Below are positions 1-16,717 of a stretch of 24,977 nt of DNA, piece after piece. The translations under genes were made by a program, and so were the position numbers. The notes beneath the pieces are model-generated. The model searched no databases, was not told the origin of the DNA, and worked only from the letters and a program-made list of their open reading frames with translations. Numbering within the stretch: position 1 is the first letter of the stretch; every line of letters starts with the position of its first letter. The DNA comes from a virus (taxonomy: Duplodnaviria > Heunggongvirae > Uroviricota > Caudoviricetes), in IMG/VR virus record IMGVR_UViG_2778261231_000008; one strand, written 5' to 3'.

Positions 1-1053
1 TTACGGGGTAATGCCAACCGCTGCCGCCACTTTGTCGCCACTTGGCAATGTTGCCAGAGGATTGAAACGGAGCGCCGTTTCCAGATGATCCGGTGCCAGA
101 TGTGCGTAACGCATAGTCATTTTTATATCGTGGTGTCCGAGAATTTTTTGTAAGGCCAGGATGTTTCCACCCGACATCATGAAGTGCGCCGCAAAAGTAT
201 GGCGCAGAACGTGTGTCAGTTGACCGCGAGGGAGCACGATAGACGTTTTTTCCATCACGGATAAAAATTGAAAATAGCAGTCTGTGAAGAAATTGAACCC
301 ATCAAGCGCCATGATCTCTTCGTAAAGCTCTTTACTGATAGGGATGCTTCTGTTTTTCTTCCCCTTCGTTCTTACAAAGGTAATTCGGTATTTGGTCACC
401 TGTGAGCGGGTAAGATTTACGGCTTCTCTCCAGCGTGCGCCTGTGCTTAAGCATATCTTGACTACCAGAGCCAGAATTGGGTCCTGACGTTTGCAATCAG
501 CCAGTAATTCAACAATCTGCTCATGGGTAAGCCATGCCATCTCTTTTTCTGCGATGGTGAATTTTCGCATGTTCTCCAGTGGGTTCGGATACGACCATTC
601 GCCCAGACGGGATAGTTCGCTAAAAACACTACTTAGATAGCTTTGCTCCAGGTTAATGGTGACCGGGCTTGCTCCTTTCTTCCATTTCTCGCTGAAGTAG
701 ATCTCGCCTGTCAGGCGTTTATCTCGATAGTGGGCAAACATTTTAGAGGTGAGATCGGTTGCAAGAGGATTGCCTAGAGCGTCAACCATCAGCAGCAATT
801 TGTCATAGACATGCTGTCCAGCAGTCAGAGATTTACCATGTAGTTTGAACCATAGCTCAACCACGTCTTTCAGGGTTCGACGATCCACTGATTCGCCCAG
901 CCAGGGCTTTGATTCGGTTTCTTCCATCGTGTGACGCTCAAAAGCCAGAGCTTCGCCTTTGGTGGCGAATTGTTTACGCACACGACGCCCACTTCGTCCG
1001 GCGGGGTAACATTCGCAAAGCCATTTCCCTGTGGTGAGTTTTCGTACTGCCAT
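1..1053 (-). CDS. int: Tyrosine integrase (P2/186-like site-specific recombinase)
   Basis: 402-aa ORF in the track; the likely true start is the internal ATG at 1051..1053 (MAVRKLTTGKW...), preceded by a GGAGGG Shine-Dalgarno, giving 350 aa. The C-terminal region carries R..HxxR...Y tyrosine-recombinase signatures (LRHTFAAH, MRYAHL). Position at the prophage edge next to att. Confidence 0.88.
   Translation of the reverse strand: MAVRKLTTGKWLCECYPAGRSGRRVRKQFATKGEALAFERHTMEETESKPWLGESVDRRTLKDVVELWFKLHGKSLTAGQHVYDKLLLMVDALGNPLATDLTSKMFAHYRDKRLTGEIYFSEKWKKGASPVTINLEQSYLSSVFSELSRLGEWSYPNPLENMRKFTIAEKEMAWLTHEQIVELLADCKRQDPILALVVKICLSTGARWREAVNLTRSQVTKYRITFVRTKGKKNRSIPISKELYEEIMALDGFNFFTDCYFQFLSVMEKTSIVLPRGQLTHVLRHTFAAHFMMSGGNILALQKILGHHDIKMTMRYAHLAPDHLETALRFNPLATLPSGDKVAAAVGITP
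19..41. repeat. attL core: 23-bp direct repeat cgctgccgccactttgtcgccac, repeated at 22123..22145 with one mismatch
   Basis: Direct comparison of the two ends of the phage-like block; identity stops on both sides of the 23-mer. It overlaps the 3' end of the integrase ORF. Confidence 0.7.
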
Positions 1054-1241
1054 AAAAAATGCCCTCCAGTAGAGAGCATTTTTACTGTATGTATAACCAG
1101 TGTCAATGTATGAAATCCTACGACCATACATCTCACTGAAGCCATAATGAAGTTGGCTATTCTTTTTGCTATGTGAGCATGTAACTTTTGCGGTTAACCT
1201 GCGGCTCATTTTTATTTTAGACGCAGATATAAAAGCAAAAG

Positions 1242-1448: not shown

Positions 1449-2018
1449 CTATTTAACATACCTGACTGTTAAACTTATAATTTTACCAATTATTTCAATG
1501 TCTTCTATCTTGCATTCGAAGGCTCTGTTTCCACCCTCGACGAAGATTCTTCCACCGGGTAAACGAGTAATGTCACGGATCGTTATTTCGCCATCAATAC
1601 TTATTACCCATTTACCATCACGTATATCATCAAATTCTTTATCACAAATAAATTCAGAATTGTTATCTGTGATGACAAAAGGTTTTTTAAACGTAGAGGG
1701 TAGAAATCCCTTATCAAAAATATAAAAACCGTCTTTCTGCAATGCTCCATCAGACAATAAATATTTTTCTACTTCTATAGTATTTGTATTTGCTGATGCT
1801 TGCTTTGAACCATGCCCTGTTGTTAGCCAATTAAGCGAGGTGCCCGTTTCAAGGGCGCACTGGATTACCCAATCTGCTGGAAAAATATCACGCATATAGC
1901 GCGTTGCCATGGTGCTCTTAGAAACACCTAAATGATCACAGAGAGCCTGACGGGTACCGAACCCATATGCTTCAACTAAACGTTCTATGGCTTTCTTACC
2001 GCCGCTATTGAAATCCAC
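1449..2018 (-). CDS. cI: Phage 186 CI-like immunity repressor (HTH), no LexA-like S24 autocleavage motif seen
   Basis: The track ORF 1449..2105 begins with GTG; a GTG at 2016..2018 with an upstream GGAGG gives about 189 aa, matching 186 CI length. HTH region ...IERLVEAYGFGTRQALCDHLGVSKSTMATRY...CALETGTSLNWLTTG; no G-D/N-S-M peptidase motif. Start codon is uncertain. Confidence 0.65.
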   Translation of the reverse strand: MDFNSGGKKAIERLVEAYGFGTRQALCDHLGVSKSTMATRYMRDIFPADWVIQCALETGTSLNWLTTGHGSKQASANTNTIEVEKYLLSDGALQKDGFYIFDKGFLPSTFKKPFVITDNNSEFICDKEFDDIRDGKWVISIDGEITIRDITRLPGGRIFVEGGNRAFECKIEDIEIIGKIISLTVRYVK

Positions 2019-2163
2019 AAGTCCTCCAAAGAAATCCAAAATTCGTTGAAAGATTCCAAAAGCGATCTTAAAGTTGAACCAGAAGTGTTCTTTTGGAGCC
2101 TTCACTACTAATCACGACAAACAACGGCTCGCCACAAGCCATATCTAGAAGGAATGTTGCCTT

Positions 2164-4232: not shown

Positions 4233-4531
4233 CAAGGGCAGTGCGTATCCATCAATTAAAAATTGCACCTAAGTATTTCAACGCTGTGGTTGCAGGTCAA
4301 AAGACGGCTGAACTTCGTAAAGACGATCGTGGCTATAAAGTTGGTGATGTTCTTTCTCTTTGCGAATGGAAGCATGGCGTATTTACGGGTAGGGAATGGG
4401 CCGCTGTTATCTCTCATGTGCTTCCGGTTAATGACGTCATGGCAGTTTCAGAACAATGGGTGATGCTATCAATTCGCCCATTAACCCCATTAGAAGCTTT
4501 AGGATATGTTATTGCAGGAGGTGCTGTATGA
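4229..4531 (+). CDS. Small ASCH/PUA-like domain protein (about 100 aa), tentative
   Basis: ATG at 4229 ([11 protein letters not shown]...) preceded by GGAGG and overlapping the upstream stop; segment [32 protein letters not shown] resembles ASCH/DUF3850-type proteins as I recall them. Confidence 0.45.
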
Positions 4532-5385
4532 GCACCATCCTGAAATGGGCGGGAAATAAAACCGCCATTATGTCCGAACTGAAAAAACACCTTCCTGCTG
4601 GCCCGCGACTGGTTGAACCTTTCGCGGGTTCCTGTGCTGTGATGATGGAGACCGATTACCCCAGCTATCTGGTTGCGGATATTAATCCTGATTTAATCAA
4701 CCTCTATAAAAAGGTTGCCGCTGATTGTGAATCGTTTATATCTCGCGCCAGAGTTTTATTTGAGATCGCAAACAGGGAGGTGGCTTATTACAACATAAGG
4801 CAGGAGTTTAATTACTCCACTGAAATTACTGATTTCATGAAAGCGGTATATTTCCTGTATCTCAATCGTCATGGTTACCGTGGATTATGTCGCTATAACA
4901 AGAGCGGGCATTTCAACATTCCGTACGGTAATTATAAAAATCCGTATTTCCCTGAAAAAGAAATTCGCGCATTTGCAGAGAAAGCCCAGCGGGCAACGTT
5001 TATCTGCGCAAGCTTTGATGAAACGCTGGCGATGCTGCAGGTGGGGGATGTGGTGTATTGCGATCCGCCGTATGACGGTACGTTTTCCGGCTATCACACT
5101 GATGGTTTCACTGAAGATGACCAGTATCACCTGGCATCCGTTCTTGAACATCGGTCATCAGAAGGACATCCGGTCATTGTTTCTAACAGTGACACATCCC
5201 TGATCCGTTCGCTGTATCGCAATTTTACTCACCACTACATCAAGGCAAAACGCAGCATCGGTGTGGCAGCTGGTGAGAGTAAATCTGCAACAGAAATCAT
5301 CGCTGTTTCCGGGCCGCGCTGCTGGGTGGGATTTGATCCTTCGCGTGGCGTGGATAGTTCTGCCGTGTACGGAGTGCGTGCATGA
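4528..5385 (+). CDS. dam: DNA adenine methyltransferase (Dam-like, GATC N6-adenine)
   Basis: ATG at 4528 ([15 protein letters not shown]...) with AGGAGG upstream; close to E. coli Dam throughout, including the N-terminal AdoMet motif (LVEPFAGS), [16 protein letters not shown] and the catalytic DPPY motif. Confidence 0.9.
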
Positions 5386-7766
5386 GCCATGCTGATATGA
5401 ACAACTGCAGCGGCTTTAACGAGGTCGCCGCAGCATTCTCATGGAACAGCCCGAAAAAGGCCATTAACCCTTATCTGGACCCGGCGGAAGTTGCGCCGGT
5501 TTCTGCGCTTTCAAACCTGATCACTCTGTACGCTGCAGATAACGAGCAGGAACAACTGCGCCGCGAGGCACTGAGTGATCAGGTCTGGGAGCGTTATTTC
5601 TTTAATGAATCCCGTGATCCTGTCCAACGCGAAATGGAGCAGGATAAGCTCATTAGCCGGGCAAAGCTGGCGCATGAGCAGCAGCGTTTTAATCCGGACA
5701 TGGTCATACTGGCGGACGTTAACGCCCAGCCTTCCCATATCAGCAAGCCGCTGATGCAACGTATTGAATACTTCAGCAGCCTGGGCAGGCCAAAGGCTTA
5801 TTCCCGCTATTTGCGTGAGACGATTAAGCCATGTCTGGAACGACTGGAGCATGTACGCGAGAGTCAGCTATCCACTTCTTTTCGCTTTATGGCAATCCAT
5901 GAAGGTCTGGACGGCCTGCTGATATTGCCTGAAATGAGTCAGGATCAGGTGAAACGCTTGTCTACTCTTGTCGCTGCGCATATGAGCATGTGTCTTGATG
6001 CCGCTTGTGGTGATTTGTACGCCACCGATGATGTTAAGCCAGAAGAAATCCGCAAGACATGGGAAAAGGTGGCAGCAGAAACCCTGCGACTGGATGTCAT
6101 ACCGCCTGCGTTTGAGCAACTCCGCCGGAAAAGAAACCGCCGTAAACCCGTGCCCTATGAACTCATTCCGGGTTCGCTGGCGCGTATGTTGTGCGCCGAC
6201 TGGTGGTACCGGAAATTATGGAAGATGCGTTGCGAATGGCGGGAAGAGCAGTTGCGCGCTGTCTGCCTGGTCAGCAAAAAAGCATCTCCTTATGTCAGCT
6301 ATGAAGCCGTGATGCATAAACGTGAGCAGCGCCGTAAGTCGCTGGAGTTTTTCCGTTCTCATGAACTGGTGAACGAAGACGGCGACACGCTGGACATGGA
6401 GGATGTGGTAAACGCCAGCAGCAGCAACCCTGCGCATCGCCGCAATGAGATGATGGCCTGTGTTAAAGGTCTGGAGCTTATCGCGGAAATGCGCGGTGAC
6501 TGCGCCGTTTTCTACACCATCACCTGTCCGTCACGTTTCCATTCCACGCTAAATAACGGCAGGCCCAACCCGACCTGGACAAATGCGACGGTAAGACAAA
6601 GCAGTGATTATCTGGTCGGCATGTTTGCTGCATTTCGTAAGGCGATGCACAAAGCCGGATTGCGCTGGTATGGCGTGCGGGTGGCTGAGCCGCATCATGA
6701 CGGTACAGTTCACTGGCACCTGTTGTGTTTTATGCGCAAAAAAGACCGCCGCGCCATCACTGCATTACTGCGTAAGTTTGCCATCCGTGAAGACCGCGAG
6801 GAGCTGGGCAATAACACGGGGCCGCGCTTTAAGTCTGAGTTGATTAACCCGCGCAAAGGAACGCCGACAAGCTACATCGCGAAATATATCAGTAAGAACA
6901 TTGACGGGCGTGGTCTGGCTGGCGAGATCAGCAAGGAAACGGGTAAATCCCTGCGTGATAACGCTGAATACGTGAATGCCTGGGCGTCTCTGCATCGTGT
7001 TCAGCAATTCCGCTTCTTTGGTATTCCGGGGCGTCAGGCTTATCGTGAACTGCGATTGCTGGCTGGTCAGGCGGCAAGGCAGCAGGGTGACAAAAAAGCA
7101 GGTGCGCCGGTACTGGATAACCCACGCCTTGATGCCATCCTAGCTGCTGCTGATGCTGGTTGTTTTGCCACCTACATCATGAAGCAGGGGGGCGTACTGG
7201 TTCCCCGCAAATATCACCTCATCAGAACCGCTTATGAAATCAACGAAGAGCCGACCGCCTATGGTGATCACGGCATTCGTATTTATGGCATCTGGTCACC
7301 CATTGCAGAGGGCAAGATCTGTACTCATGCAGTGAAGTGGAAAATGGTTCGTAAGGCCGTTGACGTTAAGGAGGCGGCAGCCGACCAAAGCGCTTGCGCC
7401 CCTTGGACTCGTGGCAATAACTGTCCCCCTGTTGAAAAAATGTACCAGACAGGGGGCGAATTATCGGGCAGGCAAGAACCTGCAGCCCTGCCGGACTTCG
7501 AGAATATGAGCAAAAAGGAGCTGCGAGAACTGACAGCGAGGCTGCGACTGGTCAAACCGAAGCGCCGGAAAGGGTACAAACAGGAAATTACGGATCACCA
7601 GCGCCTGCAGCTCGATGCGGAACTGAGGTCCAGAGGCTTTGACGCGAGTGAAACGGAAGTTGATCTGCTTCTACGTGGCGGCAGCTTGCCATCTGGAGCC
7701 GGATTGCGGCTGTTCTACCGGAACCAGCGGCTGCAGGAGGATGACAAATGGCGGCAGTGGTACTGA
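5382..7766 (+). CDS. A: Replication initiation endonuclease A (P2 gpA family, rolling-circle)
   Basis: 794 aa; conserved block [19 protein letters not shown] and ...[12 protein letters not shown]... with the active-site tyrosine region typical of P2 A; start overlaps the dam stop. Confidence 0.85.
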
Positions 7767-8401: not shown

Positions 8402-10423
8402 ATGAGCAGTTTTTATTATATCCAGCCGGAATTAAAAAACGATTTTAATGCAAGTTTTTTGAATTCTTTGGAAGAGTATTCCAATCGAAAACAGTTGCAG
8501 GTATATGCTATAAAAAATCCTCTCGGGGAAAATAAGTATAACTATGATAGAGATGACGTTCTGGTGTTATTAAGCCCCGGATGCAAAATGGCATTTATTA
8601 ATTTCGGAGATAATAGTGATGAGTTTGAAAATTTCCAAGAGGATTTTGTCGAGGATTTAGGCTCACTATCTGATAAATACAATTATAAAGATACAATTGG
8701 AAGACCACGTGAATGGCGTCGTAACCTGGTCTCGGATTTTATATTCAATGATATCGATGACGATTTAGATGCGTTTTTTGATGAGATTAAACTCGCGGAT
8801 GGATCGCTTGCAAAAAAGAGCGAGTTAATCATCTCGTTGTTGACTGGTAGTATAAACAATATTGATAAAGTAAAAGGGAATGTTCCTGACAATATCCTTG
8901 ATAAAGTTAAGCAAAAAATAATTTTATTTGATGGAGATCAAACTAGATTTGTATATCAGAAGTTTGATAAGAAAAAAGTAATTATTCAAGGGCTTTCAGG
9001 CACGGGCAAGACAGAACTTTTGCTTCACAAGTTGAAAGAAATATATTTGGATAAGAATAATCATGATAGTAAAATAATGTTTACATGTCATAATAAAATC
9101 TTGGCAGATAGTATGAGAAAGAGGATTCCAGAGTTCTTCAACTTTATGAAAGTTGAACAACAAATTAGCTGGAATGATAGATTGTGGTGTGTAAACGCTT
9201 GGGGATCACAATACGATAATAATTCTGGGGCTTATCGTTATATCTGTGAAGCCTATGGGATAAATTTTCATCGCTTCAGCTATGTCATGACCTTTGATAG
9301 AGTTTGTCGCTTAGCATTGGAAGAAATAAGAAAAATCCCTGAAGGTCAATTCAAACATTGCTTTGATTTTATGTTGGTCGATGAAAGTCAGGATTTTCCA
9401 TCAAGTTTTATCGAGCTTTGTGAGTTAGTAACTCGCGATACACTGTATGTAGCAGGTGATATATTTCAAAGTATATTTGATACCAATATTTCTAATGAAA
9501 TCCAACCTGATTTTTTATTGAGTAAGTGTTACAGAACTGACCCGAGAACTTTAATGTTTGCCCATGGAATTGGCATGGGGTTATTTGAGAGTGAGCCTCT
9601 CACATGGCTCGAAAATGACGAGTGGGAAGCATGTGGCTATATTGTGGACCATTTTGAACGTGCCAAGTTGAGATTGAAACGTGAGCCATTACGTAGATTT
9701 GAAGATGTGACTGATGCCAAAATCCATAGTGTTGAATTAGTTAATTCGACATTTGATACTGAAGAAAAAAACATCTTGGATTTATTGCATAAAATCAAAG
9801 CAGAGAATCCAACTGTTCTAGCTGACGATATCGGTATTATTTTTATCGATAAGGCTAAAAGTATCTTCACTATTGCCGATAAGCTTGAAGTCAGTGTTCC
9901 AAGAATTTTTGGTTGGAAAGTGAATAAGGCTTATGAAACCAAAGAAAAAGTAAAGGATACTTTATTTCTTAGTAATAAAAATCATGTAAAGGGGTTGGAG
10001 TTCCCATTTGTTATTTGTGTTACGCGAGATATTAGTAGAAGCCATTCAGATCGAAATTCTTTATATATGATGCTGACTCGATCCTTTATTCGTTCCTATT
10101 TGCTTTTAGGTGATCGTGATGAAAGTCTTCAGGCTGAAATTCAGCGGGGGTTAGAAAACATTAATGCTCATGGCTATATGGAAATTACCATTCCTCCTCA
10201 AGATGTTATCGAAAGAATAAGGACTACAATTAAGTTTGACGAGAAAAGTATTTCCCATTATGACTTGGTGTCTAAGGTGTTCGATGATCTCAATATTGAG
10301 GCTATATTCAGGCCGTCACTATATGAAATTGTGAAGAATATTCTTCCAGACTCTTTTGATGTTGAAAGGATATCAAAAGTCATTTTGTTTAATTACGAAG
10401 AAATGCTTCAGGAGACAAAATGA
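8402..10423 (+). CDS. SF1 (UvrD/Rep-like) helicase-family ATPase with an unassigned ~190-aa N-terminal domain; candidate anti-phage defence protein
   Basis: 673 aa. Walker A GLSGTGKT (nt 8990..9013), motif II LVDESQDF (9374..9397), motif III GDIFQSIF, motif IV CYRTD, C-terminal motif-VI-like MMLTRSFIRSYLL. Visibly AT-rich codon usage unlike the flanking phage genes. Sits between gene A and the portal gene. Confidence 0.75.
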   Translation: MSSFYYIQPELKNDFNASFLNSLEEYSNRKQLQVYAIKNPLGENKYNYDRDDVLVLLSPGCKMAFINFGDNSDEFENFQEDFVEDLGSLSDKYNYKDTIGRPREWRRNLVSDFIFNDIDDDLDAFFDEIKLADGSLAKKSELIISLLTGSINNIDKVKGNVPDNILDKVKQKIILFDGDQTRFVYQKFDKKKVIIQGLSGTGKTELLLHKLKEIYLDKNNHDSKIMFTCHNKILADSMRKRIPEFFNFMKVEQQISWNDRLWCVNAWGSQYDNNSGAYRYICEAYGINFHRFSYVMTFDRVCRLALEEIRKIPEGQFKHCFDFMLVDESQDFPSSFIELCELVTRDTLYVAGDIFQSIFDTNISNEIQPDFLLSKCYRTDPRTLMFAHGIGMGLFESEPLTWLENDEWEACGYIVDHFERAKLRLKREPLRRFEDVTDAKIHSVELVNSTFDTEEKNILDLLHKIKAENPTVLADDIGIIFIDKAKSIFTIADKLEVSVPRIFGWKVNKAYETKEKVKDTLFLSNKNHVKGLEFPFVICVTRDISRSHSDRNSLYMMLTRSFIRSYLLLGDRDESLQAEIQRGLENINAHGYMEITIPPQDVIERIRTTIKFDEKSISHYDLVSKVFDDLNIEAIFRPSLYEIVKNILPDSFDVERISKVILFNYEEMLQETK

Positions 10424-11055
10424 CAAAAGAATATTATTTTAGCCTTGATCAATCTCAATGCGATTGGGCTTTTAAGGCAATTAGAAATAAAAAAGATGTT
10501 ATTGAAATATTAATGAGGGTTTTAAAGACAATTTCAGTATACACTGAACCATCAGCCGATAAAGTTGCTGGTAAGATGAAGTTACATATATCAAAGATGA
10601 GTCGTGTTTTCTTTTTTAGTGAAGGGAAATACTATTCGTTAGCATTCCCCTTTACGCTGGAAGTTAGTGGAGATAATCTTTGCTTCTGTAGCGGTGAAAT
10701 TGAAGTTATTGACAGTTACATTACTTCTAAAGTGCTTGCGATTATTAATGATTCTTCCTATCTCAACCCATCTCTTTGGGCATTTTTTGAGCCACTAGTA
10801 GAGCTTGAGGATCATCAAACTATTCCAGGATTTTGGCAATTTTTCAAAATGCTGCTTACGCATGAGGATGGATACATCAGATATGATGTTGACCCAGATC
10901 CGAGACGATTAGATCCAAGGAGTCACCCTTTACATCATTTTGATGTTTTCTATTCCAATCAGCCAACGTTCAAAATTGGTCTAAGAGAACATTATACTAA
11001 TGATGATATGATTGACTTATTAAATAGAGAAACTGATTGTCATTTTTTTGAATGA
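10420..11055 (+). CDS. Hypothetical 211-aa protein translationally coupled to the helicase; candidate partner/effector
   Basis: Start ATG overlaps the helicase stop (ATGA at 10420..10423); AT-rich; no motif I recognise. Confidence 0.65.
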   Translation: MTKEYYFSLDQSQCDWAFKAIRNKKDVIEILMRVLKTISVYTEPSADKVAGKMKLHISKMSRVFFFSEGKYYSLAFPFTLEVSGDNLCFCSGEIEVIDSYITSKVLAIINDSSYLNPSLWAFFEPLVELEDHQTIPGFWQFFKMLLTHEDGYIRYDVDPDPRRLDPRSHPLHHFDVFYSNQPTFKIGLREHYTNDDMIDLLNRETDCHFFE

Positions 11056-11097: not shown

Positions 11098-11802
11098 TTA
11101 TAATAAGTAGTCTGTAAATTGGATTATATCTTGGTCCAGATAGGTGTTTAATTCTTCAATTCTTTTTTGCAGTGGTAATAACTCATTTCGAACAAAAACA
11201 TTCGCCGCCTTTTCCACATCCCCAAACCCCCCAACATTACTTGGCATAATCCCCATCATCTGCGGTGGTACACGGTGTGCCGCCATCATGTCATCCCGGC
11301 TCACGTTCTTAATGTTCAAAAACTCATCCTTTGCCGCCACTTCTGACAGTGGAATGATCTGAATGCCATCCTTTTTGCCGTTTGGCGAGTACATAAACAG
11401 GTTGCGGAAATTGCCCGGACCTTTGGCGCTTTTCATGGCCTGGCGGATGTTGTTCACGTCCTCCTGGTTCTGCGCGGCGTCAGTCATATACATAATAAAA
11501 CCCGCGTGACTGCCATTGATGTAATACTTCCGGCGGAACAGCGTGGCTGACTCGTTCAGCAGGGCGGAAGGGATAGCGGACAGATATTCCGGCAGGCCGT
11601 AAATCTCCTGGTTCAAATCTGGCTCCATCAGGTGAAAGATGCTGCCTTTGGTAAACTCATACGGCTGCGTGGTCATGCCGTATTGCACAAACCAGTAGGT
11701 GTCTAAATCGATCCCGCGGCGGGTGTATTTCGCCAGCGATGGCTCCAGTGACAGAATCCCGCCCAGTCGGTTCGTCCGTTTCTCCAGGTAACCTGCAGAA
11801 AG
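11098..11802 (-). pseudogene. Q: Portal protein (P2 gpQ family), C-terminal ~234 aa only
   Basis: Portal-like sequence (...FRRKYYINGSHAGFIMYMTDAAQ...HRVPPQMMGIMPSNVGGFG...) ends at the native stop (11098). The N-terminal ~56 aa of the track ORF is GC-rich low-complexity translation of the antisense of gene S, so the 5' part is deleted. Confidence 0.7.
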
Positions 11803-12230
11803 TTGACGCCTGGCTGGCGGCGCTGCTGGCAAATCTGGAACCAGCGGCGCGAAAGCGAATGATGCTGGAGCTGGCGCAACAGCTGCGCCGGAATCAGCAG
11901 AACAACATCCGCCTGCAGCGCAATCCTGATGGGACTGGCTACGAGCCGCGCCGGGTAACGGCCCGAACAAAGAAGGGTCGCATTAAGCGGCAGATGTTCG
12001 CCAAACTCCGCACCACGAAATACCTTAAAACCGCCGCCAGTGCCGACTCTGCCAGCGTAGAGTTTGCCGGGCAGGTACAGCGCATCGCACGGGTGCATCA
12101 TTACGGCTTACGGGATCGTGTAAGCCGTAAGGGGCCGGAGGTGCGGTATACAGAGCGGCGGTTGCTTGGGATAACTGATAATGATCATGAGATGATTAAA
12201 TCAAGCATACTAGGTTTTTTGATTAAGTAG
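11739..12230 (+). pseudogene. S: Tail completion / virion morphogenesis protein S homologue, nearly full length but without its native start
   Basis: From about nt 11799 the ORF reads like P2 S / Mu G family (RNQQNNIRLQRNPDGTGYEPRR...FAGQVQRIARVHHYGLRD). The first ~18 codons are antisense of portal sequence, so the deletion endpoint is at the S start. Confidence 0.55.
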
Positions 12231-13389
12231 TCTGATCTTTTTCTTTAAAATAACCTTCAATTTTTGCAATTAAAAGACTGATGCTTTCTATAAAGTTTTT
12301 TGTTTCGCTCTCACTTGGTTCATGATGAGTGTGTGCGATTTTATCCCGTAAGTTTTTTCGATTCTCATTGGCTGTTTGCCATTCTAGCTGAGCAATCTCT
12401 GGCACAGATATATTGAACTGTTGTCTAAATAGTTGTTTGCACCTTACCTCAAATTTCCAGTTTTTGTTTAGAATGGCCTTAGTTTCGCATTCATCATGGC
12501 CTTTCTTATTAAGTTCATTGATTAGCAATCTAAGGATGTAGCTTTCAAGTCCAGCTGAAGCTTCGATTACGGCAGATCTTAACGCCCCTTTATGAACAAG
12601 GTTGTTCGCTCTAATTATTAATAATTCAGGGTGTTCATTGAATTCATCTGTCATTAATCGACGTTTAAAATCTTCAATCTGAATTTCATTATGATTGTAC
12701 CAACTATTTCGCATTAGTGGTGTTATTATTCCAACCATAGGTATTGAGCTTACCTTAACTCCATCACAGTAATGTTCTTGCAATACGCCGTTAGTGAAAC
12801 CTAACCCTGCTTGATAAAGAGATATTTCATCAGCGAATTGATCATTGAAGGCTACTCTATACTGCTTTATAAAGTGGTTGATTATACCTATGCATTCTTC
12901 AGATTGTTTGGGCGGAAATATCTCTCTAGCAGTTTTTTTGATACTTTCGAGTTTTGCTACCTTCTCAATATCTAAATTGTCCATCGTAGCTATGTGCTCT
13001 TTGGCCTCATCTTCAGATGGGTAATTGTCACCGCTTCGGATCTGACTTCTAATAGTGTTGATAAATTCCTCTTCTGAAAGTTCAGATAGAACCGCGCATT
13101 CGGCAACACTGGCAAGGGAAATTACAGTGCGGCATTTCATTATTCCTCTGTCGTTTAATATGTGTGGTGTTAATTGTTCCTTGGTTCCGAGCAACAAGGT
13201 TTGTGGGAAAAGATAAGCATCTTTGAATAATGTATAATAATCATTGTGTACAGTTAAACAAAGTTCAGTGTGTTCATAAATAAAATTATATATCCCATCG
13301 GGAATGTTCAGGACATACGGTAATTCAACTAAATAACGAGCCGCGAAAATCATGTGGTCCATCTCCATATGAGAATTGCATTGTGCCAT
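12223..13389 (-). CDS. Hypothetical 388-aa cargo protein with a C-terminal Rx4H (HEPN-like) motif; candidate abortive-infection/defence gene
   Basis: AT-rich reverse-strand ORF between S and V (the orf30 position of P2). Motif RDKIAH at nt 12331..12348. Start uncertain: the ATG at 13351..13353 has the better Shine-Dalgarno (GGAGA). Confidence 0.6.
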   Translation of the reverse strand: MAQCNSHMEMDHMIFAARYLVELPYVLNIPDGIYNFIYEHTELCLTVHNDYYTLFKDAYLFPQTLLLGTKEQLTPHILNDRGIMKCRTVISLASVAECAVLSELSEEEFINTIRSQIRSGDNYPSEDEAKEHIATMDNLDIEKVAKLESIKKTAREIFPPKQSEECIGIINHFIKQYRVAFNDQFADEISLYQAGLGFTNGVLQEHYCDGVKVSSIPMVGIITPLMRNSWYNHNEIQIEDFKRRLMTDEFNEHPELLIIRANNLVHKGALRSAVIEASAGLESYILRLLINELNKKGHDECETKAILNKNWKFEVRCKQLFRQQFNISVPEIAQLEWQTANENRKNLRDKIAHTHHEPSESETKNFIESISLLIAKIEGYFKEKDQTT

Positions 13390-13399
13390 TCGCTACACA
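13382..13399 (+). promoter_or_regulatory. TGT-N12-ACA dyad (tgtgccattcgctacaca), possible Ogr-dependent late promoter element for V
   Basis: Fits the TGT-N12-ACA half-site spacing of P2 late promoters as I recall it, but the centre lies only ~55 nt from the V start codon, closer than expected; a possible -10 (TAAATAT) at 13431..13437. Confidence 0.2.
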
Positions 13400-13444
13400 T
13401 TGCCACAAAGATGAAAAAAAATCCTGCTTTGTAAATATACGAGC

Positions 13445-14023
13445 ATGAACGCACAACTCACAGAAATCATGCGCCTTATCACCAACCTGATCCGCACCGG
13501 AACTGTAACGCAAGTGGACCGGGACAACTGGCTGTGCCGGGTGAAAACGGGCGACCTCGAAACCAACTGGATTAACTGGCTGACGCTGCGTGCGGGCAAT
13601 TCACGCACCTGGTGGAAACCGTCCGTGGGGGAGCAGGTTGTGCTGTTCAGCCTGGGCGGCAATCTGGAAACCGCGTTTGCGCTGCCTGCTGTCTACTCAA
13701 ATCAGTTTCCTCCCCCGTCCGATTCTGAGGACGGCAGCGTGACGGAATACCCGGACGGCGGCTGGTTTGAGTACGAGCCTTCAACCGGGCGCTGGTACGT
13801 CCGGGGCATCAAGTCGATGGTTATCGAGGCGTCGGATAACGTCACCTTTAAAACCGGGGAATTTGTCGTGGAAGCTGACACCACCCGCATTAATAGCGAC
13901 GTGGTGATCAACGGGGCTGTCACCCAGGGCGGCGGCCCGATGAGTTCTAATGGGATCGTGGTGGATGACCATGCGCACAACAAAGTGAAGTCCGGCGGCG
14001 AGACATCAGGAGGCCCGGTATGA
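13445..14023 (+). CDS. V: Baseplate spike/assembly protein V
   Basis: 192 aa; close to P2 gpV (IRTG..., WLTxRAGxSRTWWxPSVGEQV, C-terminal SSNG...H.HxxGG). Confidence 0.88.
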   Translation: MNAQLTEIMRLITNLIRTGTVTQVDRDNWLCRVKTGDLETNWINWLTLRAGNSRTWWKPSVGEQVVLFSLGGNLETAFALPAVYSNQFPPPSDSEDGSVTEYPDGGWFEYEPSTGRWYVRGIKSMVIEASDNVTFKTGEFVVEADTTRINSDVVINGAVTQGGGPMSSNGIVVDDHAHNKVKSGGETSGGPV

Positions 14024-15872: not shown

Positions 15873-16717
15873 GCGCAAAATTTTACACCCTGCTGACGGA
15901 CATTGGCGCGGCAAAACTGGCAAGTGCTGCCGCGCTCGGTGTCCCGCTGAAAATTACCAAAATGGCAGTGGGCGACGGGGGCGGTGTGCTGCCGACACCC
16001 AGCGCGCAGCAGACTGGCCTGATTGCAGAAAAGCGCCGCGCCGACCTGAATATGCTCTACATCGACCCGCAGAACAGCAGCCAGATTATTGCGGAGCAGG
16101 TTATTCCTGAAACGGAAGGCGGTTGGTGGATTCGTGAAGTCGGGCTGTTTGATGAGACAGGCGCGCTGATTGCCGTCGGCAACTGCCCTGAAAGCTACAA
16201 GCCGCAGCTGGCGGAGGGCAGCGGGCGCACACAGACCGTGCGCATGGTGCTGATCACCAGTAGCACCGATAACATCACCCTGAAAATTGACCCGGCGGTG
16301 GTGCTGGCAACTCGCAAGTATGTAGATGACAAGGTGCTTGAGCTAAAGGTGTACGTGGATGACCAGATGGCGAAACATATCGCCGCGGTTGATCCCCATA
16401 CGCAGTATGCGCCAAAGACTAGCCCGACCTTTACCGGAACACCAAAAGCACCCACTGCGGCGTCAGGCAATAACACCACCCAGCTTGCCACCACGGCATT
16501 TGTGCAGGCCGCTATTGCGGCGCTGGTCAATTCCTCCCCTGGCGCACTGGACACGCTGAACGAGCTGGCTGCAGCGCTGGGCAATGATCCGAACTTCGCC
16601 ACCACCATGACCAATGCGCTTGCGGGGAAAATGGGTAAGGCTGCCAATCGGCCTGTAGTAACCCATAACGGTGCGGGCTACCGCGCCAGAACTCACTTTT
16701 TCAGGACAAGAACATGA
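15869..16717 (+). pseudogene. H: Tail fibre protein H, N-terminal ~254 aa only
   Basis: N-terminal and conserved middle block (...SSPGALDTLNELAAALGNDPNFATTMTNALAGK) match P2 gpH; after about nt 16630 the frame runs ~28 unrelated codons to a stop. P2 H is about 670 aa. Confidence 0.8.

Follow-up and report, generated by a model that had tools for sequence, protein, structure and literature searches.

An AT-rich gene between the tail genes S and V of a P2/186-like prophage encodes a candidate sensor-plus-HEPN protein of the abortive-infection type

The window analysed here is the whole 24,977-nucleotide stretch of the IMG/VR virus record IMGVR_UViG_2778261231_000008, a partly deleted P2/186-like prophage. 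The gene in question is a cargo gene on its minus strand, situated between the tail genes S and V and predicted to encode a two-domain protein with a C-terminal HEPN domain. On the left, the open reading frame (ORF) at 11739..12230 on the plus strand matches Pfam Phage_tail_S (E 3.6e-39). Within it, the tail-completion gene S occupies 11790..12230 (plus strand), its first 5 nt deleted, and the 3′ end of S overlaps the stop codon of the cargo gene convergently. On the right, the baseplate spike gene V (13445..14023, plus strand) matches Pfam Phage_base_V (E 1.3e-17). An earlier sequence-only reading of this DNA had drawn a minus-strand ORF of 388 aa at 12223..13389; the six-frame ORF list contains the same frame, counted from the first ATG, and the RDKIAH motif it had pointed out at 12331..12348 corresponds to residues 348–353. 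The AT-richness it described is equally evident, with a guanine-plus-cytosine (GC) content of 0.364 in the gene against 0.596 in the tail genes to its right. The location between S and V is likewise supported by the two Pfam matches, but this copy does not show S and V as a plain pair of neighbouring structural genes, the prophage being deleted immediately upstream of S.

The true start of the gene is probably Met13 of the 388-aa frame (ATG at 13353–13351), the position at which homologues, both close and distant, begin or which they precede by a few residues. A Shine–Dalgarno-like GGAG, read from the sequence, is located 9 nt upstream of this ATG (13363..13366, minus strand). The coding sequence from Met13 spans 12223..13353 on the minus strand, comprises 376 aa, terminates in a TAA at 12223–12225, and gives a product identical to the E. 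coli protein P0134. The preceding in-frame extension of 12 codons (13354..13389, minus strand) is not conserved as protein and overlaps a TGT-N12-ACA dyad and a -10-like CACAAT; it is probably 5′ untranslated region or promoter and not coding. Compared with an Enterobacter homologue, the gene shows a dN of 0.18, a dS above 2.5 and a dN/dS of about 0.065, equal in both halves, and the low ratio indicates that the ORF is a real protein under strong purifying constraint. The 3′ end (12196–12230) carries a length polymorphism: the window has TAA (plus-strand T at 12224), and the intact version of the phage, Logan contig L013, has TTA, so that nine further residues, LSKNLVCLI, are encoded and the gene and S overlap convergently by about 35 bp. 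The possibility that the TAA, judged against L013, is a nonsense mutation private to the window was considered and rejected, since the 376-aa short form is the commonest allele in databases (P0133, 50 contigs); the short C-terminal end is probably harmless.

The protein belongs to a small family. A word-indexed search returned nine clusters at 66–100% identity, all from Enterobacteriaceae and all named 'hypothetical protein', and a second word-indexed protein search with a profile recovered only 17 proteins, while a contig scan with a 14-sequence subset recovered only four loci. An exhaustive profile search of 1.84 billion cluster representatives yielded 118 proteins at E ≤0.001, of which about 57 are full length (370–390 aa); with distant proteins of 400–460 aa, the family shares only the last ~150 residues. 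The range extends from Enterobacteriaceae prophages to Bacillales islands and a Planctomycetota metagenome bin. PHROGs places the window protein in phrog_28299, a family of unknown function (E 3.4e-192). Whole-protein searches of Pfam, NCBIfam and PDB sequences gave nothing useful, and COMMD1_N, the sole Pfam match of the whole protein (E 0.056), was dismissed as noise. No tblastn match to the protein was found in 50,697 deposited phage records. The sequence-only reading had weighed membership of a structural or housekeeping family, and no such match exists for the window protein in Pfam, PHROGs or NCBIfam.

Conservation was assessed on 42 full-length representatives that are 20–66% identical to the window protein, in the numbering of the 388-aa frame. 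Five residues are invariant, namely N171, G201, R271, R348 and H353. Three segments are nearly so: ELP[FY]xLNxPxGxY in the N-terminal half, and RSAIIEASAALE and R[HNDQ]xIAH[ST]xxEP in the C-terminal half. The last of these contains RDKIAH, which the sequence-only reading had found to fit the Rx4-6H signature of HEPN RNases in Abi proteins. By itself, the Rx4H motif is uninformative and not above chance: a protein of like composition would contain 0.65 Rx4H and 1.9 Rx4-6H by chance, and this one has three places at which an Rx4-6H begins (R227, R260 and R348). R348 can be read with either x4 or x6 spacing, and among the Rx4-6H sites conservation is limited to the pair R348/H353. Both residues are kept in 42 of 42 sequences, down to 20% identity, as the earlier assignment had foreseen for homologues. 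Simultaneously, the residue that follows the arginine is polar in all 42 (H in 25, N in 10, D in 4 and Q in 3; D349 in the window). In the HEPN active site, the Rx4-6H motif is located at a helix end, and the residue after the arginine is mostly N, D or H (PMC3710099).

That the C-terminal half (residues ~254–388, 12226..12630, minus strand) is a HEPN domain is well supported by sequence comparison and by modelling. The AlphaFold2 model, computed from a shallow alignment, is confident over residues 270–385 and contains the core four-helix up-and-down bundle that defines the HEPN superfamily (PMC3710099). Its first long helix bears R271 and E276. The helix 334–353 ends in the putative Rx4H catalytic motif (R348 and H353; 12331..12348, minus strand), followed by a loop (354–359) and the last helix (360–387). 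Of 39 family members whose C-terminal domains alone were compared with Pfam, 11 matched HEPN_RiboL-PSP (best E 5.9e-7) and 11 matched Hypoth_Ymh, with further matches to HEPN (5), DUF4145 (4), HEPN_Apea (3) and HepT-like_2 (2); we take all of these to be HEPN families. The window protein itself matches the PADLOC model PD-T4-2_B (E 9.4e-4) over residues 332–374, the 43 residues of the motif region. A domain-only profile searched against PDB sequences gave chance matches only (latrocrustotoxin and alanine racemase, for example). The R and H are again nearly invariant (RNxxxH) in 44 proteins at a greater distance, whose similarity to the family is confined to the C-terminal domain. Such domain-only proteins of 400–460 aa (alignment A3, P0058–P0126) carry other N-terminal regions, one of them with HTH_3. 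HEPN-only relatives with other N-termini suggest that the HEPN module is shuffled among sensor domains. Since the motif is invariant, the HEPN domain is predicted to be catalytically competent.

The N-terminal domain (residues 13–262, 12604..13353, minus strand) is a predicted alpha/beta domain in which a beta-rich subdomain is followed by helices. Its 250 residues are predicted confidently (predicted local distance difference test, pLDDT, 90.6), and its conserved motifs comprise ELPFxLNxPxGxY, N171, Y177, D183, F185 and G201. No convincing match to known folds was found for this domain. It is as constrained as the HEPN half and co-travels with it across phyla, which would naturally point to a regulatory or sensing role; a sensor or regulatory domain is proposed here.

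The slot between S and V has the character of a variable cargo site. Intact P2-like prophages of E. coli NCTC9966, Enterobacter cloacae, Pantoea and others carry homologues at 40–73% identity in this slot too, again opposite in strand to S and V. Consistent with the earlier description of the gene as cargo in the S–V slot, related prophages hold alternative cargo there or an empty slot: a TIR-domain protein in E. coli FORC_082 (L002 6696–7496), a 316-aa unknown protein in E. coli ECCNB20-2 (L010 1971–2921), a DUF6216 protein in E. coli HZ13 (L011 1892–2686), and a spacer of only 68 bp in E. coli 13C1079T (L012 4174–4241). The uncharacterised occupants are further candidate defence genes at that site. 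In about 1000 genomes, the match to other E. coli P2-like prophages sets in precisely at the start codon of V (query start 1655–1656), and the cargo gene is present in 20 of the 1030 complete E. coli genomes that have the V–W backbone, including the enteropathogenic E. coli (EPEC) strain E2348/69. The gene thus has both properties of P2-like hotspot cargo (a moron), a variable site between core genes and a foreign base composition. It is most likely a horizontally acquired moron of the P2/186-like prophage, transcribed against the flanking late operons.

The spacer of 91 bp between the cargo gene and V contains two overlapping candidate promoter elements. The TGT-N12-ACA dyad (13382..13399) has its centre about 55 bp from the V ATG and does not vary among six loci with cargo proteins down to 40% identity. 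TGT-N12-ACA is the consensus of the four Ogr-dependent late promoters of P2, which serve the operons PQ, ONMLKRS, VWJIHG and FI-FII-E-E′-T-U-D (PMC3931495). By this consensus match, the dyad fits PV, the promoter that would drive V-W-J-I-H. Its presence in the spacer places the S–V slot at the boundary of two late operons, which explains the tolerance of insertions there. On the minus strand, a sigma70-like TTGTGG-N17-CACAAT (13380..13408), found by eye and agreeing with the consensus at 7 of 12 positions, is directed towards the cargo gene and is a weak candidate for its own promoter; the transcription start is predicted near 13373. Both hexamer cores are invariant in the six loci, a conservation that may stem only from the overlap with the PV dyad. 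With both elements located within 91 bp, activation of PV and transcription of the cargo gene may interfere with each other.

Outside prophages, homologues with about 24–31% identity to the window protein lie in defence-rich surroundings. In Thalassobacillus pellis, the homologue lies between a minimal nucleotidyltransferase (MNT)/HEPN pair and a SLATT plus SMODS (CBASS-like) pair. In Cytobacillus oceanisediminis, it lies beside a PifA-like KAP NTPase (PADLOC E 8.5e-85), SieB and an integrase, and on a metagenome contig a YobI ATPase and a PDC-M15A candidate are close by. No neighbour is common to the P2-slot, Bacillales and metagenome contexts. The claim of the sequence-only reading that the gene acts singly is supported in this respect, no partner gene being conserved across these contexts.

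In the window, the remaining genes describe a P2/186-like prophage with an integrase (1..1209, minus strand), a CI-type repressor (1449..2105, minus strand) and the replication protein gpA (5382..7766). A gene for a Dam-type N6-adenine methyltransferase (4456–5385, plus strand; Pfam MethyltransfD12, E 2.8e-76) lies directly upstream of gpA in the early operon and overlaps the gpA start. The hotspot between gpA and the portal gene holds an AT-rich two-gene cargo with 34% GC (8402..11055, plus strand). Its first gene encodes a 673-aa UvrD-like helicase (NCBIfam STM2767 family, E 4.7e-293; PADLOC 'Helicase' PDLC03002, E 4.7e-28), and the second, which overlaps it, encodes a 211-aa partner of the STM2766 family (E 2.2e-63) that carries no Pfam domain. 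By sequence, the pair is probably a two-gene candidate defence system. In the remnant of FORC_082 (L002 1664–4913), the corresponding hotspot carries a retron composed of a reverse transcriptase (St85 family annotation), an AAA ATPase and a PtuB HNH effector (Ec78-type annotation); this remnant has lost most head genes, paralleling the decay in the window. Following the gpA–portal cargo, the window continues with a portal fragment, S, the cargo gene, V, W, J, I, a truncated H, E, T, U, D and a host transporter gene.

Two deletions separate the window from the intact phage, L013, which is otherwise 99.9–100% identical. The first removes 7.6 kb at the junction 11789/11790, and with them the portal N-terminus, the terminase, capsid and lysis genes, the R gene and 5 nt from the start of S. 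The second removes 3.0 kb at 16645–16651, with short microhomology at the junction, and takes the C-terminus of H, G, sheath and tube. At least 15 contigs, drawn from independent samples, carry both deletions (L022–L026), a recurrence which indicates that this form has become fixed as a cryptic prophage in an E. coli lineage. The cargo gene and the gpA–portal cargo are intact in all deleted copies with listed gene tables (five loci), and the gpA–portal cargo is intact in the complete prophage as well.

Taken together, the explanation we favour, and hold to be moderately probable, is that the cargo protein is a single-polypeptide sensor plus HEPN RNase that serves in abortive-infection (Abi) defence as prophage cargo. 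With ApeA, HepS, DARNA/PD-T7-3 and PrrC as the analogy, the lysogen would make the protein and keep it auto-inhibited until an infecting phage supplies a cue that the N-terminal domain senses. The cue would license the HEPN active site, which is probably dimeric; in characterised HEPN enzymes the active site is formed across the dimer. The HEPN domain would then cut RNA in a metal-independent manner, either tRNA anticodon loops or mRNA, and the cutting would arrest translation and abort the infection. During the lytic cycle of the resident phage, its own convergent late transcription could silence the gene. The RNase activity, dimerisation, sensor role, RNA target and anti-phage phenotype are what we infer from the domain assignment and this analogy. 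A more elaborate joint version, in which the N-terminal domain is a new sensor fold for a specific phage component that gates the HEPN domain, the S–V slot is a third, unexploited hotspot, and late transcription silences the gene in antisense, is offered tentatively and is rather doubtful as a whole.

Several observations weigh against the sensor-plus-HEPN RNase explanation. The window protein is below every curated threshold in Pfam, NCBIfam and PADLOC, and the HEPN call therefore rests on the predicted structure, the family members and the motif. The full-length model is moderate (pLDDT 70, predicted template modelling score 0.45), and the arrangement of the two domains is not fixed by it. 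In many HEPN families, not all, a second acidic residue is found near the active site, typically as Ex3[KR] (PMC3710099); this form of the signature is not present in the cargo protein, in which E276 (40 of 42) and the invariant R271 stand in the first long helix with another spacing. Only three loci outside prophages contribute to the defence-island evidence. A promoter and terminator scanner with a threshold of 9/12 found nothing in 11900–13700. The cargo ORF is still intact in a prophage from which head, lysis and tail genes totalling 10.6 kb have been lost, but this survival is weak evidence of selection because the deletions are recent, given the 99.9% identity to the intact phage. Furthermore, codon 53 (13231–13233) codes for Thr in the window, as in the identical P0134, the allele of the deleted prophage, where all other sequences examined and the family consensus (YA) have Ala; judged from the alignment, A53T may possibly attenuate the copy of this cryptic-prophage lineage.

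Among the rival explanations, two survive about equally well and are both improbable. In the first, the HEPN protein is a toxin without a role in defence, acting as a prophage addiction or stabilisation module or as half of a toxin–antitoxin pair with an unrecognised antitoxin. Such a pair would need a companion, and neither an MNT gene nor any other conserved neighbour adjoins the gene in any context. The flanks of the window gene are S and V, with neither a sign of a small-protein antitoxin nor room for one. An RNA antitoxin (type III/AbiF-like) was considered as well and rejected, there being no tandem repeats and no Rfam match beside the gene and the spacer measuring only 91 bp. The N-terminal domain of 250 residues under purifying selection fits an in-cis regulator better. 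In the second, the RNase would serve the life cycle or competition of the phage, through control of lysogeny or induction, through cleavage of host or P4-type satellite transcripts, or as counter-defence, and not abortive infection. The gene is absent from about 98% of the E. coli genomes with the V–W backbone, and absence from most P2-like phages argues against a life-cycle function. The gene is also antisense to the late operons, its distant homologues lie in Bacillales chromosomal islands with defence genes and no phage structural genes, and the search of deposited phage records returned none.

A third rival is considerably less likely than these two: the HEPN-like domain could be a non-catalytic ligand- or protein-binding bundle, and the whole protein a regulator or adaptor. 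The structural matches of the domain do include sacsin, MtlR/YggD and the substrate-binding domains of nucleotidyltransferases, in which such bundles serve in this way. Against this, non-catalytic HEPN lineages have wholly or partly lost the Rx4-6H motif (PMC3710099), whereas all 42 sequences of the present family retain R, H and the polar residue that follows R. The weakest rival, a chance open frame or decaying pseudogene, could appeal to the defective prophage and to an allele with a shorter C-terminus and A53T, but it is effectively refuted by the conservation data, given the dN/dS value, 118 cluster representatives with conserved motifs across phyla, a short form that is the commonest allele and not a private lesion, and a confident structure prediction.

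If the abortive-infection explanation is true, a new family would be added to the single-protein HEPN anti-phage nucleases, and its N-terminal domain without recognisable relatives would provide a fresh case for how infection is sensed by HEPN nucleases. The S–V junction of P2-like prophages, with its TIR, DUF6216 and unknown occupants, would then be a place to seek more defence genes. The general picture would be unchanged, HEPN effectors and prophage-borne defences being already well established. Meanwhile, the presence of a homologue in a standard EPEC strain, E2348/69, makes experiments straightforward.

The position of the gene resembles that of known P2 cargo. The P2 loci old/tin by the portal gene, Z/fun and orf30 likewise hold variable, compositionally foreign genes between P2 core genes, and orf30 is presumably the P2 occupant of the S–V slot itself. 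Defence hotspots of P2-like phages have been documented at the gpA–portal and Z/fun loci (PMC9122126, PMC9519451). Additional ones are described 'within the late genes' (bioRxiv 10.64898/2026.02.27.708500), and the hotspot literature also mentions a position 'downstream of GpL'. Neither the S–V slot nor the present cargo family is named in this P2 hotspot literature (PMC9122126, PMC9519451, bioRxiv 10.64898/2026.02.27.708500).

At the level of the protein, RiboL-PSP-HEPN (PF18735) is the HEPN family nearest to the cargo family by sequence, and the R-polar-x3-H arrangement is found in PF18735/PD-T4-2_B and the cargo protein alike. The PD-T4-2 defence system was reportedly validated by Vassallo et al. 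in 2022. It consists of two genes, a DUF262/ParB-like component and a HEPN component (PMC10952713, PMC12065111), with DUF262 and HEPN (PF18735) domains; the gene that carries each domain is not stated (PMC10952713), and the PADLOC model PD-T4-2_B is taken to be the HEPN component. The cargo gene differs from this system in that it is flanked by S and V and has no DUF262 gene beside it, and the short PD-T4-2_B model (174 positions) contains nothing that aligns with the 250-residue N-terminal domain. HepT-MntA pairs a small HEPN protein with an adjacent minimal nucleotidyltransferase, whereas the cargo gene encodes a two-domain protein of 376 aa and no MNT gene adjoins it in any P2-slot locus examined. 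The MNT/NTase_sub_bind pair of Thalassobacillus is a separate module about 2.3 kb from the homologue.

The lactococcal Abi proteins AbiD/AbiF, AbiJ, AbiU2 and AbiV, as well as AbiA (in its C-terminal domain), also bear HEPN domains, but their hosts and N-terminal domains differ from those of the cargo protein. The Pfam Abi families gave no match to the 39 C-terminal domains, save one of the 39 to AbiU2 (E 0.017). DARNA/PD-T7-3, which is activated by single-stranded DNA and a phage single-stranded DNA-binding protein, HepS, ApeA and PrrC are single-protein HEPN tRNA nucleases (bioRxiv 10.64898/2026.02.22.705581) and thereby share the organisation proposed here. In a PADLOC scan at E ≤1, PD-T4-2_B was the only match, with none to the ApeA, PD-T7-3 (DARNA), HepS or PD-T4-5 models. 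The HEPN domain of DARNA is N-terminal, the opposite order to that of the cargo protein, and compared with ApeA, DARNA and HepS, the N-terminal domain of the cargo protein is of an unrelated fold. Judged by sequence and domain organisation, the cargo protein would thus stand outside every named family tested, as a new family among the sensor-plus-HEPN Abi-like proteins.

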